Source: Escherichia phage NHEP11. Taken from it: a stretch of DNA of 64,000 nucleotides. Location of the stretch: the sequence record PQ511149.1, one strand, 5' to 3'. The notes beneath the pieces are model-generated. The model searched no databases. It saw only the letters and a list, made by a program, of their open reading frames with translations, and had not been told where the DNA came from. Positions 45,918 to 51,078 of this stretch are shown here, one piece after another; the first letter of the stretch is position 1, and every line of letters starts with the position of its first letter. The translations under genes and the position numbers were made by a program.

Positions 45918-46158
45918 CTCGGTCCCATGATTTGGACATTAATTCGGACATAAATTCTTCAATGCGCGTTTCTTTAGATGGACTTTCACTATCAGATATT
46001 TGGACCATATAATCAGAAATAGGTCGGAACATATCCAAGTCGCTTTCTAAATCTTCTTTGATTTTCTCTTCTGACGTTCCGGTATCATAGGAATACAGAT
46101 AAGAATCACATGATTCTGATTTAATGTAAATTGCTATACTCATCTCAAATTCCTGCAC
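45907..46158 (-). CDS. hypothetical acidic protein
   Basis: 83-aa ORF. Confidence 0.4.
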   Translation of the reverse strand: MQEFEMSIAIYIKSESCDSYLYSYDTGTSEEKIKEDLESDLDMFRPISDYMVQISDSESPSKETRIEEFMSELMSKSWDRDDE

Positions 46159-46631
46159 TCGGTAATAAAACGTTCAACTTCATTATTCTTGGCTTTTATC
46201 TTGTCTTTATGTTCCTGTAAACTACTTTTAATAAGATTAATAATGATGGCTGCAGTACCACCGCCAATGATGCCACCAACAACACTTATGATACTAGATG
46301 CTAATAAGATGGCAATAATATCAACAAAACCGAAAGAACTCACCTTAGTACTGAAAAACCATATAGATGGTACAAATATAATCCATCCTGTTATCCATTG
46401 GCACTTATTGAAAAACTTTTCAAGCTCAGCTTGAGTTGTTAGTATTACTTCATCGATAGGTTGATATCCATTAATGTATCTGTTCATGATAATACCTGCT
46501 GGCTGGTCGATTTTAAATTCTTGGCAAATACGTTTCACTAAGTAGGATGGACATCCTGTCCAATCTACTGAATAATATGAAATACCTTCATTGCCATCGT
46601 CTATATTAGACCAATATGTTTTGTTAATCAT
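46140..46631 (-). CDS. membrane protein with C-terminal FITECR tail
   Basis: 163 aa; two hydrophobic helices; ends ...ERFITECRNLR. Confidence 0.5.
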   Translation of the reverse strand: MINKTYWSNIDDGNEGISYYSVDWTGCPSYLVKRICQEFKIDQPAGIIMNRYINGYQPIDEVILTTQAELEKFFNKCQWITGWIIFVPSIWFFSTKVSSFGFVDIIAILLASSIISVVGGIIGGGTAAIIINLIKSSLQEHKDKIKAKNNEVERFITECRNLR

Positions 46632-47317
46632 TACCAGCCTTCCATAGGGAATTCCAGATAAACTTGAGCATTGACACGAATTTCATTGGTAATCTTTTTA
46701 ACTCGGTCTGTATTACGAGATACACGTCCGAACCAACGCCATCCATTACTAATTGCACGAGAACCAGTGTGCCATGTTTGCCAATCAAACTGAAGAAGAG
46801 TACGATCTGGAGCTTCCCATTTCTCTAGTTCGCCTTTTTCGATTTTTTCGAGGACTTCTTTGTGCCACTGGCGATAGATAAGTTCGCCATCAGGAATCTG
46901 ACTGAACTCTGCAGTTCCTGTTGCAAAATGAGTAGGACACACATCAGCGTTAACAAGACCAAGAATATGTTCAGAATGGTAACGAGGGTTGTCATAATCA
47001 GGTTGTCCTGCAGTAATAAAGTGTTGACCTACCGGAATATCCGGGCGTGGTACATCGTCATGGTGATAACCTGGGATAGCAGGGTACCAACCAGGCATCA
47101 GCATGTGGACTCGTGAATCAAATACAACCTGGTCGGTGTTCCAATCATCAGGCAAGTTCATGATGAAGCTGCGAGTAATAGGACCGCCGTTATTATAAGC
47201 AAATTCTAAACTACAGTTAAAGAACATCGGTTCGTTCTTGATTTTATCATTAGAAATGCTACCGGCAAAACCACCTACTGCACGAGCTTGGCTATTAAAC
47301 ACTTTAGAACTATTCAT
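46631..47317 (-). CDS. hypothetical protein
   Basis: 228-aa ORF; His/Asp-rich segments; no fold assigned. Confidence 0.5.
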   Translation of the reverse strand: MNSSKVFNSQARAVGGFAGSISNDKIKNEPMFFNCSLEFAYNNGGPITRSFIMNLPDDWNTDQVVFDSRVHMLMPGWYPAIPGYHHDDVPRPDIPVGQHFITAGQPDYDNPRYHSEHILGLVNADVCPTHFATGTAEFSQIPDGELIYRQWHKEVLEKIEKGELEKWEAPDRTLLQFDWQTWHTGSRAISNGWRWFGRVSRNTDRVKKITNEIRVNAQVYLEFPMEGW

Positions 47318-47318
47318 A

Positions 47319-47624
47319 TTATTTTCCTCGACACTCTTTAATGAAATTTTCTAGATTGGTAGATTCAATAGCTTTTTTACGAGCTTCTGCGTGTTCTTCT
47401 TCGGACAATTTACGTTTATAATTGACCCAGACATTATGGTCTAAACCGGACGTGGCATATAATATCAAAGCTCCGACGAATAATAAAAACGGTGATAAAA
47501 ATATACAACCAGGAACACCATCCATACTGTAAGCCTTTTGTAATACTGCAACAGAAAGAGCTGCGTAAAAAAGTGATGCAAATATTGTAAAAAGACCAAT
47601 TCGGTTGGTTTCGCCTAATTTCAT
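47319..47624 (-). CDS. membrane protein with C-terminal FIKECR tail
   Basis: 101 aa; two TM helices; ends ...NLENFIKECRGK. Confidence 0.5.
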   Translation of the reverse strand: MKLGETNRIGLFTIFASLFYAALSVAVLQKAYSMDGVPGCIFLSPFLLFVGALILYATSGLDHNVWVNYKRKLSEEEHAEARKKAIESTNLENFIKECRGK

Positions 47625-47695
47625 AATATTCTCCTCATGTTTTAATAGGACTACTATAACATAGCCCTATAATTGTGTAAACAGTTTTTGTGAAG

Positions 47696-49189: not shown

Positions 49190-49462
49190 TTAGCAAGTGT
49201 GAGAAGATGCAACCCAACCGCCATCTTCAAGGCTCAGGTTGTAGTCGTATTGGTAAACGTCGGCCCATTCAGCATAGCCGTTTTTTGTACAACGTTCAAG
49301 ATCGGCTTTAAGATGTCCTGGTGAATGATATGTTCCACCCATACCATAAGCTGGATACAAGTCGAATGTTGTGTTTTGTTTATTAGCAATTTCTTTGGCG
49401 GCCTCAATAGCTGCATAGATTTTTGCTACGGCTTCAGCCAGTTCGGTTTGTTCTTTAGACAT
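49190..49462 (-). CDS. small protein, WVSSSxxC-tail family
   Basis: 90 aa; ends GGWVASSHTC; stop-SD-start spacing to the next paralog. Confidence 0.45.
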   Translation of the reverse strand: MSKEQTELAEAVAKIYAAIEAAKEIANKQNTTFDLYPAYGMGGTYHSPGHLKADLERCTKNGYAEWADVYQYDYNLSLEDGGWVASSHTC

Positions 49463-49471
49463 AATGATTCC

Positions 49472-49777
49472 TTAGCACAACGCAGAAGACGAAACCCAAG
49501 CACCTTCAGTAATAACGTAACCATTACCTTCACGCTTAACATCGCCACCATTATTTTCTATTTCATTTTTCATCCACTGGGATACGATTTCACCCTTAGG
49601 ATAATAAGTACGACCGCTACCATAATCACCTACAGAAAATGATACGGCATATTGGTCTGCGATCTTTGTTGCTTCTTCTTCGATACGTTCAGCTTGATTC
49701 AGAAGTTTGTAAATTGCATCTGAAGCGGATTTGGCATCATTAAACTCTGGTACTTTAATTTCAATAATCTTACTCAT
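49472..49777 (-). CDS. small protein, WVSSSxxC-tail family
   Basis: 101 aa; ends GAWVSSSALC. Confidence 0.45.
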   Translation of the reverse strand: MSKIIEIKVPEFNDAKSASDAIYKLLNQAERIEEEATKIADQYAVSFSVGDYGSGRTYYPKGEIVSQWMKNEIENNGGDVKREGNGYVITEGAWVSSSALC

Positions 49778-50133
49778 TTTCTACATTCCTTAATAAAGTT
49801 TTCGATTGTTTCATTTTCACGTCTAGCTAGGAGTTCATTATAACTAATCATTTGAGAAGCGTAAACCTTTTTATTTTTCTTGTTATGGTTTATAAAATCG
49901 TAGTAAAAATAGACTACAGTACAAAAGGATGCGATGGATGCAAAGGCTTGGGTATACCGTAAGTCTTGCCATTGGTCTGTGAATCCACCAGTGTTCCCTA
50001 TAAATCCTAACACAACGCCGTCAATAAGAAATCCAACTAATCCAAAGGCAAATCCCATGCCAATACTCATAATAAAAATTAGAATGTTCTCACCAAGAGA
50101 AGGCCATACGGTTAAGAGCTGAGGCTTTTGCAT
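49774..50133 (-). CDS. membrane protein with C-terminal FIKECR tail
   Basis: 119 aa; hydrophobic helices; ends ...IENFIKECRK. Confidence 0.5.
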   Translation of the reverse strand: MQKPQLLTVWPSLGENILIFIMSIGMGFAFGLVGFLIDGVVLGFIGNTGGFTDQWQDLRYTQAFASIASFCTVVYFYYDFINHNKKNKKVYASQMISYNELLARRENETIENFIKECRK

Positions 50134-50507
50134 CTTATTTCCTTAACGAATTCCATAGCTTCTTCATATTCATACTTTTTAACAGCTTCATCATACTGAG
50201 CTTGGGCTTTTGCGCACTGAACTTTCCATTCTCTTAATCGGGCTCTGTGATGACGGCCTTGGTACCAATATCCCACCCAGTTAATAGGCATTAATAAAAA
50301 TGGTACAATAAGCGGTGCGGCGAACATTAATGAAAACGCTGCATCAGACGATATAACTTTACTAGAATCTAAAACAGCTCCTATAATCATAAAGATTAAA
50401 AATGCTAAAGCTAAAATAGGGCCAAATAGTACTTCGTTTGGGATTAATTTACGTTTGTATTCGTATGCCCAGGGCTTAATTGGCATGTACAGGGTTGGCT
50501 TTGACAT
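50112..50507 (-). CDS. membrane protein with FVKEIRC tail
   Basis: Start trimmed to an internal ATG to limit overlap; ends ...EAMEFVKEIRCKSLSS. Confidence 0.4.
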   Translation of the reverse strand: MSKPTLYMPIKPWAYEYKRKLIPNEVLFGPILALAFLIFMIIGAVLDSSKVISSDAAFSLMFAAPLIVPFLLMPINWVGYWYQGRHHRARLREWKVQCAKAQAQYDEAVKKYEYEEAMEFVKEIRCKSLSS

Positions 50508-51078
50508 ATTCTCTACATTCCATAATAAATTGCTCAAGGATTAAATTGTTAGTGAAATTAGGACTAACAACCATGGTTTCATAAAGCGCATCAATAGCAC
50601 TTAAAGCATCAACTCTTTTAAGCAAAGGCTTGCCTTCATACATAGTTTCAGAATCAACGATTAACGTAAAGTAATATTTTTTATTATCGACTAGAACTTC
50701 TGTGTCGATATAAAACATATTAGACCTCAGAAGCTTATCTCTAAAACCATAATAATCTTCTGAACGTTCGCTGATATATTCCCATTCAGTGTTTAAACAA
50801 CAAACAGACCACGTAGGAGCAACGAAATCAGTGAATCTAATATCATGGTCTGCAACTAGTTTAGCAATAGCTCCGATATCATGAATCATAATACCTGGGG
50901 CTAATAAAGATTTTCTGCTATGGCTAGCCGTTTTCTCAGTGGTCTCATAAGAAGACGACCAGTACCATTTACGTCCAGTTGCAACATATCGTAATGAATC
51001 AACTAAAGACGTAGGTGGATTTACCTTATCTCGGAACTCTTCGAACATTGAGTCAATATCATTATTTTGGTTTCGCAT
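50476..51078 (-). CDS. hypothetical protein with FIMECR motif near C-terminus
   Basis: Start set to the ATG preceded by AAGGAG; contains ...LILEQFIMECREYV... Confidence 0.45.
   Translation of the reverse strand: MRNQNNDIDSMFEEFRDKVNPPTSLVDSLRYVATGRKWYWSSSYETTEKTASHSRKSLLAPGIMIHDIGAIAKLVADHDIRFTDFVAPTWSVCCLNTEWEYISERSEDYYGFRDKLLRSNMFYIDTEVLVDNKKYYFTLIVDSETMYEGKPLLKRVDALSAIDALYETMVVSPNFTNNLILEQFIMECREYVKANPVHAN

Follow-up and report, generated by a model that had tools for sequence, protein, structure and literature searches.

Tail-bearing genes between e.6 and e

The 64 kb window, by which we mean the whole stretch of phage DNA that was analysed, belongs to an RB69-like Mosigvirus (T4-like). 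Five ORFs on its minus strand carry a common C-terminal tail and correspond to e.2, an RB69ORF133c-like gene (p101), e.3, e.4, and e.5. Their full-length membership in PHROGs (2203, 9798, 2330, 2604, and 2607, respectively) was assigned at E about 1e-50 to 1e-95. The gene order e.6-e.5-e.4-e.3-...-e.2-nudE-e is that of the T4 and RB69 annotation, and phmmer comparisons with the T4, RB69, and SP18 loci agreed with the orthology of the window ORFs. All features below whose coordinates are written with two dots lie on the minus strand.

The e.2 homologue (46140..46631; 163 aa) ends in ERFITECRNLR and consists of a soluble N-terminal domain, a hydrophobic region at residues 80-135 (about two TM segments), a short charged helix, and the tail. 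It matched phrog_2203 'membrane protein' (E 3.4e-53), in agreement with the annotation of RB69 e.2. Its FITECR motif (46152..46169) is followed, 8 nt past the Arg codon, by the ATG of a 78-aa acidic protein, and the Shine-Dalgarno (SD) sequence AGGA spans the R-N codons. The RB69ORF133c homologue p101 (47319..47624; 101 aa, C-terminus ENFIKECRGK) is a minimal module in which two TM segments are followed by a charged helix of 33 aa and then the tail; it matches phrog_9798 and, weakly, also the C-terminal half of phrog_2203 (E 3.4e-4). Here the FIKECR motif (47328..47345) precedes the next ATG by 10 nt, with the SD GAGGA spanning the R-G codons. Upstream of p101 lies an early-promoter-like cassette of its own, a 68-nt repeat, with a promoter-like site at 47653-47681.

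The e.3 homologue (49774..50133; 119 aa, about two TM segments, phrog_2330) has the tail ENFIKECRK. Its stop overlaps the start of the next gene (ATGA), the ATG of which lies 2 nt past the Arg codon of the FIKECR motif (49780..49797), and the K-E codons AAGGAA are the SD of that gene. In the e.4 homologue (50112..50507; 131 aa from ATG, two TM segments, phrog_2604; tail EFVKEIRCKSLSS) the motif reads FVKEIR (50133..50150), with Ile and not Cys at position 5, and the e.3 ATG overlaps the Arg codon. The Cys that follows Arg in this tail (...IRCK) is a TGC overlapping the e.3 ATG (ATGCAA; AGATGCAAAAG) and not the motif Cys. The e.5 homologue (50476..51078; 200 aa from ATG, phrog_2607; tail EQFIMECREYVKANPVHAN) carries FIMECR (50512..50529), 4 nt upstream of the e.4 ATG. 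The original prediction had this protein ending in ...EYV, which was incorrect: e.5 runs 11 residues beyond the motif, and its last 11 codons overlap the e.4 start.

Next to e.5 lies the e.6 homologue (51128..51721; 197 aa), a candidate partner of the tails discussed below. A terminator-like GC-rich hairpin with a T-run (51102..51119) separates the two genes, and a promoter-like site of the sigma-70/T4-early type (51763..51791; TTTACA-17-TATAAT, 11/12 matches) lies upstream of e.6, both being consensus matches only. An internal-protein-like ORF is found at 44658-44954.

A search of the six-frame translation of the window with the regular expression F[IV].E[CI]R gave exactly five matches, all of them in these ORFs and each 1-11 residues before the stop. 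The expected number was 0.22 (60 first-order Markov simulations), and 0.003 ORFs were expected from composition-matched C-terminal 26-mers of the 164 ORFs of at least 60 aa. The claim of five ORFs with a common C-terminal motif was borne out by these numbers. Over the remaining 104 kb of a related Mosigvirus genome the strict motif was found inside no ORF, and neither of its two six-frame matches fell within a stop-free stretch of 45 aa or more. Thus, in a whole Mosigvirus genome the strict motif is confined to this cluster. We found no description of the shared tail motif in the literature; the original prediction knew of no described function.

Conservation of the tail and overlap with ribosome-binding sites

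A total of 52 tail-bearing proteins from at least 11 genera were counted: 35 curated proteins in 8 genera, and 17 more from Aeromonas phages 31 and avDM6, the Pseudotevenvirus phages Miller and Invicta, and three metagenomic contigs. The motif was present in orthologues from Tequatrovirus, Gaprivervirus, Winklervirus, Karamvirus, Jiaodavirus, Roskildevirus, Bragavirus, Biquartavirus, Ishigurovirus, and Pseudotevenvirus, and additional paralogues with the motif were found too. Conservation in the orthologues of related phages, on which the original prediction had staked itself, was hence observed. The refined protein motif is [IL]-[EN]-x-[FWY]-[IV]-x-x-C-R, in which we number the aromatic residue as position 1. 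Among the 35 curated proteins, position 1 was aromatic and position 2 was I, V, or L without exception (35/35 each), position 6 was Arg in 33/35, and Glu4 occurred in 19/35. Position 5 was Cys in 23, and in 10 of the other 12 it was aliphatic (I, V, L, or M). Since a third of the tails thus lack Cys5, no thiol chemistry is required of the tail. The tail 9-mer was 33-89% identical between orthologues and the rest of the protein 15-52%.

The motif codons frequently coincide with the ribosome-binding site of the next gene. In 25 of the 35 curated genes the next ATG lay -1 to +10 nt after the Arg codon, even where, as in e.4 and e.5, the upstream ORF continues for another 5-11 codons. An SD-like core (AAGGA, GAGG, AGGA, or GGAG) within the motif plus 3 nt was found in 21/25 tails near an ATG vs. 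3/10 farther away, and K3-E4 in 13/25 vs. 0/10 (Fisher p = 0.005). The tails of e.3 and e.5 have 20 of 22 nt in common. All of this favors the hypothesis that the motif is a by-product of the downstream translation-initiation region, an AU-rich stretch with an SD for translational coupling that encodes a functionless peptide. The central K-E (AAGGAR) owes its frequency to this overlap: it is largely the SD of the next gene read in frame rather than a protein signal, and part of the apparent conservation (K3, E4, and the basic residues after Arg) comes from the overlapping site. This corrects the original FIKECR as far as its K-E is concerned.

As an account of the whole motif, the initiation-region hypothesis is nevertheless quite unlikely. 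The residues at positions 1, 2, 5, and 6 (aromatic, I/V, Cys, and Arg) are conserved to the same degree in tails whose next ATG lies beyond 10 nt or is missing. Spacing was not fixed as in a pure translation-initiation element: the downstream ATG is offset by -1 to +22 nt and occurs in all three phases, whereas the frame of the motif in the upstream ORF is constant, and only K3-E4 behaves like an SD. Arg is encoded by both AGR and CGN codons (AGA 13, AGG 5, CGT 7, CGA 5, CGC 3), and selection therefore acts on the protein. Both Cys codons (TGT 15, TGC 8) and both Phe codons (TTT 21, TTC 6) are used, and Phe is substituted by Trp and Tyr, changes that are conservative at the level of protein but not of RNA. 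Moreover, the other closely spaced genes of the genome do not encode the strict motif, and in Miller, Invicta, and avDM6 it is separated from the stop by 14-27 codons.

In Proteus phages all five tails, from soluble and TM proteins alike, have Tyr at position 1 (YIESKR, YIEQCR, YIETCR, YIMQCR, YIKTKR), a residue seen there only once elsewhere, and 3-4 of the 5 have Glu at position 3. Judged from these sequences, the Proteus tails appear to covary lineage-wide, which we counted in favor of a common partner.

The distance from the motif to the C-terminus varies from 0 to about 27 residues, and the sequence after the motif is unrelated between proteins. The sorting signal suggested in the original prediction, if read from the terminus, does not fit this. 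Another hypothesis is that the tail is a degradation or turnover signal read by a host protease (ClpXP, FtsH, Lon), or a site for the T4 prohead protease at I-x-E, giving its bearers a common lifetime. ClpX reads a basic class of C-terminal signals, which the basic extreme C-termini of some tails (CRK, CRKIK, CRRARK) loosely resemble, and early gene products may need clearing. The T4 prohead protease gp21 has the cleavage consensus L/I-x-E, to which I-K-E of FIKECR is similar, and an internal-protein-like ORF is present in the window. However, proteases that read the terminus need a fixed end, so that a C-terminal degron of the ssrA or ClpX type was rejected on the variable distance, and the basic residues after Arg coincide with purine-rich codons of ribosome-binding sites. 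Since Glu4 is found in just 19/35 tails and tracks SD proximity, I-x-E is not the conserved feature, and a gp21 site or capsid-targeting-like sequence was likewise rejected. We give this hypothesis very little credence.

Predicted helix, membrane topology, and heads of the tail-bearers

The hydrophobic residues of the motif are spaced i, i+3, i+4, i+7 and are followed by the almost invariant Arg, a pattern that would make one face of a predicted amphipathic helix hydrophobic. Its hydrophobic moment is highest at 110-120 degrees, with a modest mean (0.40, exceeding shuffles of the same sequences by 0.6 sd). Positions -2, -1, and 4 are often acidic.

Kyte-Doolittle scans gave about two TM segments each in e.2, p101, e.3, and e.4, in accordance with the prediction that most of the five have two, and no hydrophobic segment in e.5, which is a soluble and not a membrane protein. 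The TM members have a common architecture of two TM segments, a charged helix of 20-40 aa, and the tail. Because their C-terminal regions are rich in Lys+Arg (7-15) and their TM count is even, the positive-inside rule places the tails of these members in the cytoplasm, where the original prediction had also put them. The AF2 model of e.5 is poor (pLDDT 54) and mixed alpha/beta, with residues 179-194 helical at low confidence; homologues of e.5 carry the precomputed family PF26876.

By hhalign, e.3 and e.4 are full-length paralogues (94%, E 1.4e-7 over 111 columns), and they have the N-terminus M-[QS]-K-P-x-L in common. With the tail removed, hhalign detected no similarity among the heads except a weak e.3-e.4 signal (E 1e-3). 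The bearers fall in at least 10 separate PHROGs (2203, 9798, 2330, 2604, 2607, 13418, 10830, 29231, 16787, 9350), all without an assigned function apart from phrog_2203 (generic 'membrane protein'), and neither these PHROGs nor Pfam PF26876 records the common tail. When 1.84 billion representatives were searched exhaustively with profiles, only the same families came back, apart from one long repetitive protein. The description of the bearers as different membrane proteins is accordingly right in that the heads are mostly without detectable similarity, but e.5 is soluble and e.3 and e.4 are paralogues.

The paralogy of e.3 and e.4 agrees with the hypothesis that common descent alone explains the tail, as the slowest-evolving part (folding, membrane insertion) of tandem duplicates that diverged from one ancestral gene and have no common partner. 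So do the common architecture of the TM members, the N-terminus MI-K-T that e.2 has in common with 'tmA' proteins, and the copy number of the tandem tail-bearing genes, which varies from 1 to 6 between genera. We nonetheless regard it as unlikely. The same motif is found on the soluble e.5 family, which has no TM segment and is of another fold class in the model, and to which a role in membrane insertion does not apply. Most families have no detectable homology once the tail is removed, and the 9 residues are kept where the remainder is 15-30% identical, indicating purifying selection on the stretch itself.

A soluble bearer in a cluster otherwise of membrane proteins could alternatively receive a membrane address from its tail. 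On this hypothesis the tail would be an amphipathic helix that targets the membrane and lies in its plane, like the C-terminal helices of MinD and FtsA, bringing e.5 to the inner membrane and the tails of the TM proteins onto the bilayer surface. The amphipathic pattern, the bulky hydrophobics, the flanking Lys or Arg, and the position at or near the C-terminus are as expected of such a short helix. The hydrophobic face comprises just four residues, however, a small Cys among them, and the moment exceeds that of shuffles by only 0.6 sd. Unlike the MinD and FtsA helices, the tail has acidic residues inside the helix, which are unfavorable on an anionic membrane, and most of its bearers are already membrane-integral. 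A single Arg that hardly varies, together with a preferred Cys, speaks for specific recognition and against generic lipid binding. Membrane targeting thus seems very unlikely.

e.6 and a candidate docking system

Of the 15 e.6 loci inspected, 14 have a tail-bearing gene of the e.5 family immediately after e.6. The order e.6 - e.5 - TM paralogues was seen in the window, T4, SP18, LC53, Jiaodavirus, FBB1, Pm5461, and L023-25. Instead of lying beside nudE, the e.6-e.5 pair is in the nrdD-nrdG region in Aeromonas phage 31, Miller, and Invicta, and near gp31/cd in avDM6. PG7 has its soluble tail-bearing gene apart from e.6, and Gaprivervirus VR7 keeps the tail-bearing e.2 and e.3 with no e.5 or e.6 at this locus. 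The adjacency could reflect shared descent and not function.

The model of e.6 is all-helical; an N-terminal helix and a long hairpin (25-80 / 86-145) are followed by short helices at the C-terminus, and the fold most resembles Vipp1/PspA/ESCRT-III proteins. Nine of its ten best Foldseek matches in the PDB were Vipp1 (best match 7o3w_A, E 9.5e-4, probability 1.00) and the tenth was archaeal CdvB2, with PspA lower. In BFVD, the matches after the relatives of e.6 were to a protein of the Snf7 family (E 6.8e-4) and to a PspA/IM30 protein from a phage (E 0.028). By sequence, e.6 had no Pfam match at E <= 1, hence none to PspA_IM30 or Snf7; its profile found no PspA or Vipp1 among PDB sequences, and hhalign against E. 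coli PspA gave a probability of 0.2%.

A common binding partner, as the original prediction suggested, would be the most economical reading of the shared tail. We hypothesize that the tail constitutes the last turns of a cytoplasmic amphipathic alpha-helix and is a selected, protein-level docking motif for such a partner, a reading to which we give an even chance. The motif would be ancestral to the soluble e.5 family, itself genetically coupled to e.6 in the Straboviridae examined. In Tevenvirinae and Bragavirus it would also have been placed on fast-diverging, tandemly duplicated two-TM inner-membrane proteins (e.2, e.3, e.4, p101, and others). All these early proteins would differ in their heads but plug into one partner via the same docking helix in the tail. 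The coincidence of motif codons with the ribosome-binding site of the next gene is a DNA-level constraint on top of the protein motif. The best candidate for the partner is e.6, as a Vipp1/PspA/ESCRT-III-like helical scaffold; this more specific proposal, to which gene-pair conservation and the fold resemblance point, is tentative and on balance doubtful. On this view the TM paralogues might serve as anchors or adaptors at the membrane, with e.5 being a soluble adaptor or regulator, possibly in membrane remodelling or repair during infection.

In the Psp and Lia systems, small inner-membrane proteins (PspB/PspC and LiaI) recruit PspA and LiaH, respectively (PMC7619361). The TM tail-bearers as putative e.6 anchors resemble these pairs in that a helical protein, PspA/Vipp1/ESCRT-III-like by its predicted fold, is encoded beside small inner-membrane proteins with cytoplasmic C-terminal helices. 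Unlike Psp and Lia, the system is phage-encoded and has 1-6 diverged anchors per genome plus a soluble member, with one short motif in common. The phage proteins have no sequence homology to PspA, PspB, PspC, or LiaI, and the five tail-bearers gave no Pfam or NCBIfam match above noise, hence none to the PspB, PspC, or LiaI-LiaF-TM families.

The TM members are also similar to class II holins and other small two-TM phage proteins (e.g., T4 Imm) in size (90-130 aa), in a topology with two TM segments and both termini inside as judged by hydropathy and Lys+Arg counts, in the highly charged C-terminal tail, and in being encoded near the endolysin gene e. We rejected their assignment to this class: no holin family was matched in Pfam, NCBIfam, or PHROGs, the promoter-like sites are of the early type, there are 4-6 paralogues with nudE between them and e, and the motif occurs on soluble proteins too.

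In poxviruses, a C-terminal PRANC/F-box-like motif links many paralogous ankyrin-repeat proteins to a single effector. Kingdom and fold differ from the phage case, which has a 9-residue helix instead of an F-box and in which the partner is a candidate. In both, fast-evolving paralogues carry one short C-terminal motif and their copy number varies between related viruses.

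The C-terminal tail motif and its conservation

Five ORFs on the minus strand of the window, e.2, p101 (RB69ORF133c-like), e.3, e.4 and e.5, end in near-identical FIKECR-like tails, and both the ORFs and the tails were as originally predicted. When the 64 kb window was translated in six frames, the pattern F[IV]xE[CI]R matched exactly five times, each time in one of these ORFs and 1-11 residues before the stop codon. The expected numbers were 0.22 matches in simulated sequence and 0.003 ORFs for composition-matched C-terminal 26-mers. A related Mosigvirus genome, over its other 104 kb, had no match to the strict motif within an ORF, and two six-frame matches there lay outside any long ORF. 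Two details of the original prediction were corrected. The e.5 protein does not end at the motif and continues for 11 further residues, and the Cys of IRCK in e.4 is not the motif Cys: it is encoded by a TGC overlapping the e.3 start codon (AGATGCAAAAG), and position 5 of the e.4 motif is Ile. Matches to a looser pattern in thymidine kinase (38330-38911) and in an antisense ORF inside gene 3 (57722-57943) were unrelated. Gene conversion among the tails was rejected; a 22-nt DNA repeat is common to the e.3 and e.5 tails only, and the others differ at synonymous sites.

The motif was kept in orthologues from related phages, and its absence from them was not seen. In T4 the tails read EFVIDCRKIK (e.3), KFVKESRCKSQS (e.4) and EKFVKECREYVK... 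(e.5), and intact Tequatrovirus e.2 ends in NNFITECRKLK. Three to six tail-bearing genes each were found in the same cluster of Gaprivervirus SP18 and VR7, Winklervirus LC53, Karamvirus PG7, Jiaodavirus, Roskildevirus FBB1 and Bragavirus Pm5461. Further bearers were present in Aeromonas phages 31 and avDM6, in Pseudotevenvirus Miller and Invicta, and in three metagenomic contigs. In total, 52 tail-bearing proteins from 11 named genera were collected.

Position counts were made on 35 curated proteins of the 52, aligned on the motif (positions 1-6, F-I-K-E-C-R). Position 1 was F, W or Y and position 2 was I, V or L in 35/35, and position 6 was R in 33/35. Cys occupied position 5 in 23/35, the other 12 being mostly aliphatic (I, V, L or M in 10). 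Lower counts were obtained for K at position 3 (17/35), E at position 4 (19/35), E or N at position -2 (21/35) and I or L at position -3 (19/35). The tail 9-mer was typically twice as conserved as the remainder of each protein. Tails of Proteus phages, from soluble and transmembrane (TM) proteins together, carried Tyr1 in 5/5 and Glu3 in 4/5 cases, which is rare elsewhere and gives a small hint of lineage-wide covariation of the tails.

The tail is amphipathic. Its hydrophobic residues are spaced at i, i+3, i+4 and i+7, at sequence level the signature of an amphipathic helix, and its hydrophobic moment peaks at 110-120 degrees. A membrane-targeting helix was considered, and the acidic residues and the nearly invariant Arg speak against it. 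Reading the tail as a degron or as a site for gp21 is opposed by the variable distance to the terminus and by the non-conserved Glu4. A gp21 cleavage site, a capsid-targeting-like sequence, a C-terminal degron, Cys-dependent chemistry and a metal site were rejected because neither Glu4 nor Cys5 is invariant and the motif lies at varying distances from the terminus.

The e.2 gene of the T4 reference NC_000866 (9473-9961) is truncated, encoding 102 aa vs. 162 aa in intact copies from other Tequatroviruses. A 1-nt deletion in an A-run is paired with a 1-nt insertion about 80 nt later, and the NNFITECRKLK tail is therefore left in an unannotated remnant ORF. These frameshifts could be real mutations or an old sequencing error.

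Protein and ribosome-binding signals within the tail

The motif coincides with the ribosome-binding site (RBS) of the gene that follows. In 25/35 cases the downstream ATG followed the Arg codon at -1 to +10 nt, even where the upstream ORF reads into that gene. A pure RBS or translational-coupling artefact was considered as the origin of the tail. The K3-E4 pair (AAG GAR, read as AAGGAR) was found in 13/25 cases with an ATG within 10 nt vs. 0/10 otherwise (Fisher p = 0.005), and a Shine-Dalgarno (SD)-like core lay inside the motif in 21/25 vs. 3/10, the distant-ATG cases coming mostly from more distant phages so that phylogeny is confounded with distance. Such an artefact accounts for K-E alone. 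The aromatic residue at position 1, I/V at position 2, Cys5 and Arg6 were independent of the distance to the ATG. Arg is encoded by AGA, AGG, CGT, CGA and CGC, Cys by TGT and TGC, and Phe at position 1 by TTT and TTC except where Trp or Tyr takes its place. Both the distance to the downstream ATG and its phase vary, whereas the frame in the upstream ORF is constant. From this codon freedom, the independence of ATG distance and the constant frame, the protein motif was derived as Φ-[IV]-x-x-C-R (Φ, aromatic) with a hydrophobic residue three positions upstream. Judged by these patterns in the sequences, selection acts on the tail as protein; the RBS constraint explains only part of the motif, with KE being largely dual coding. 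The tail provides a clean example of dual coding, in which the centre of a protein motif doubles as the SD sequence of the next gene, and a caution for motif hunters in compact genomes.

Two out-of-frame overlaps occur among these genes. The last 11 codons of e.5 lie over the first 10 of e.4 (50476-50507), and the last 7 codons of e.4 lie over the start of e.3 (50112-50133). In both, the downstream ATG has stayed beside the motif and not beside the stop codon.

The tail-bearing proteins and their neighbour e.6

The five products had been described as membrane proteins, which held for the four with about two TM segments and failed for e.5, which has no hydrophobic segment. That they are otherwise different was largely correct, the exception being e.3 and e.4, which are full-length homologues by hhalign of small family alignments (94%, E 1.4e-7, 111 columns). 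A weak signal remained between these two without the tail (E 1e-3), and their N-termini agree (M-[QS]-K-P-x-L). In the same hhalign comparisons e.2, p101 and e.3 matched one another over the last 16-52 columns only, with no mutual match left once the tails were removed, and e.5 matched the others over 9-17 columns only. We considered that the tail is a relic of paralogy without a shared partner, a reading that leaves the soluble bearers and the selective retention unaccounted for. The four TM bearers have a common architecture of about two TM segments, a Lys/Glu-rich helix of 20-40 residues, and the tail. Their C-terminal regions contain 7-15 Lys+Arg, and the tail is therefore predicted to be cytoplasmic in these four, as first proposed.

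Searches of local copies of Pfam and NCBIfam, and of PHROGs, with the five proteins and their neighbours yielded only PHROGs of unknown function and noise-level matches. Homologues of e.5 fell in a precomputed family (PF26876), and their alignment held only 10 sequences. A homologue search with e.3 alone returned 3 near-identical proteins, the word index being too insensitive for short, fast-evolving proteins, and an IMG/VR locus search with e.4 returned only 6 loci. An HMM of the aligned TM-plus-tail module was searched exhaustively against 1.84 billion representative proteins. Ten of the 11 matches belonged to the same Mosigvirus and Tequatrovirus families, and the eleventh was a long repetitive protein of 1124 aa, matched in nine short stretches. 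With that match left aside, the module cannot be traced by sequence beyond T4-type phages.

Members of the soluble e.5 family have diverged but can still be aligned through a YS[VL]xxLND core, and only the motif Cys and Arg and the start Met are invariant. An e.5-family gene directly followed e.6, which encodes an all-helical protein (51128-51721, minus strand), in 14/15 e.6 loci inspected. The e.6/e.5 pair lies next to nrdD and away from nudE in Aeromonas phage 31 (tail FVDYCRR), between nrdD and nrdG in Miller and Invicta (FIHSCKK), and near gp31/cd in avDM6, which has two e.5 paralogues (FIKECRD and FVNECRL). As the pairing also holds at sites far from nudE, e.6 and tail-bearing e.5 form a conserved gene pair across Straboviridae, and e.5 probably carried the motif ancestrally. 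In Tevenvirinae and Bragavirus, and only beside this pair, the small TM bearers were found as well.

Sequence searches gave no family assignment for e.6, and its identification as PspA was rejected at that level. The AF2 model of e.6 (29 sequences, pLDDT 76) shows a helix at the N-terminus and a long helical hairpin, the latter predicted with confidence. In a Foldseek search of the PDB, nine of the first ten matches were Vipp1 and the other was CdvB2, with PspA lower; the best was 7o3w_A (E 9.5e-4). In BFVD, the relatives of e.6 were followed by a Snf7-family protein and a phage PspA/IM30 protein. The e.6 product is thus reasonably likely to be ESCRT-III/PspA-like, in the sense of a resemblance in predicted fold and not of membership. 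The AF2 model of e.5 (mean pLDDT 54) was too poor for tail packing or a fold search. The N-terminus of e.6, KK[IL]VEFIRxK, bears a loose, partial likeness to the tail and also differs in Proteus phages; it was given no weight.

In the mechanism considered most likely, the tail would be a docking helix for one common partner, for which e.6 is the best candidate. Unrelated heads would be joined to the partner through this helix: a soluble domain in the case of e.5, and two-TM hairpins that evolve fast in the case of e.2, e.3, e.4 and p101. The TM proteins would serve as membrane anchors or adaptors for e.6, and the role may concern how the inner membrane is handled at an early stage of infection. 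Known arrangements of this kind are adaptor families that carry short docking motifs, and scaffolds of the PspA type that work with small membrane anchors. PspA and LiaH are brought to the bacterial membrane by the small inner-membrane proteins PspB/PspC and LiaI (PMC7619361). In its fullest form, which we regard as rather unlikely, T4-type phages would possess their own ESCRT-III/PspA-like system of membrane remodelling or repair. Here e.6 would be a polymerising scaffold, recruited or regulated through the docking helix [IL]ExΦ[IV]xxCR by interchangeable adaptors, e.5 and the diversifying two-TM array (e.2, e.3, e.4 and p101), whose variable TM heads would act as sensors or targeting elements for different membrane sites or host factors.

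The original prediction knew of no described function, and full-text literature searches (e.3, e.4 and e.5 names, peptide strings, phage-encoded PspA) likewise found no description of the motif or of gene functions. The genes e.2 to e.6 are ORFans both in T4, among the most intensively studied viruses, and in more than a thousand relatives with sequenced genomes. A single 9-residue motif joins at least 10 separate PHROGs of unknown function, the sole label among them being a generic "membrane protein" (phrog_2203), and ties them genetically to a protein with a predicted Vipp1/PspA/ESCRT-III-like fold, so that a block of unannotated genes can be tested as one module. Should the tail dock onto e.6, phages would encode a counterpart of the membrane-stress systems Psp and Lia of bacteria. 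The module would then bear on inner-membrane management by T4 in infection, in matters such as the timing of lysis, superinfection and defence against abortive-infection systems that disrupt membranes. The interest of the finding is moderate now and would be considerably greater if the e.6 link holds.

Gene order and other features of the locus

The window is a segment of an RB69-like, T4-type Mosigvirus genome, and 46000-51200 is 95-98% identical to phages ST2, PhAPEC2, HX01 and others. The gene order, all on the minus strand, is e.6, e.5, e.4, e.3, three small paralogues, several inserts, p101, a 228-aa ORF, e.2, a 78-aa acidic ORF, nudE and e. Early-type promoter-like sites precede e.6 (51763-51791, minus strand) and p101 (47653-47681, minus strand), and a hairpin with a T-run after it lies between e.6 and e.5, all of them by consensus match only. 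A 68-nt direct repeat (47621-47688 and 48917-48984, 78% identity) holds an early-promoter-like TTTACA-17-TATAGT and an RBS, with copies upstream of p101 and of an 83-aa ORF (48681-48932). Mobile early-promoter cassettes are thought to drive module shuffling in T4-type phages, and the repeat looks like such a cassette.

In most of the inspected nudE-linked clusters, the very acidic 78-aa protein (phrog_2900; MSIAIYIKSESCDSYLYSY...; 45907-46143, minus strand) is encoded between nudE and the final gene with a tail. In PG7 a single gene intervenes, and in FBB1 and L023 a different small protein takes this position. The acidic protein is a further candidate partner of the basic tails. The 228-aa ORF (phrog_1843; 46631-47317, minus strand), inserted among the tail-bearing genes, had no Pfam or NCBIfam match. 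Its conservation is very high and extends from Mosigvirus to Erwinia phage FBB1 and to metagenomic contigs, as in the stretch ...HMLMPGWYPAIPG[YF]HHDDVPRPDIP.GQHFITAGQPDYDNPRY.SEHILGLVNA... Many T4-type phages conserve a 318-aa protein (47696-48652, minus strand) that contains DUF7277 (Pfam E 9e-28) and DUF7275 (8e-79), and its copy in Aeromonas phage 31 also lies a few genes from e.6. The three small paralogues are tandem phrog_899 genes on the minus strand (48983-49180, 49190-49462 and 49472-49777), whose products carry W-V-x-S-S-x-x-C right at the stop codon (WVSSSYSC, WVASSHTC and WVSSSALC). This second conserved C-terminal motif of the cluster is unrelated to the tail and was also found in SP18 gp140 and gp141, LC53 and PG7.
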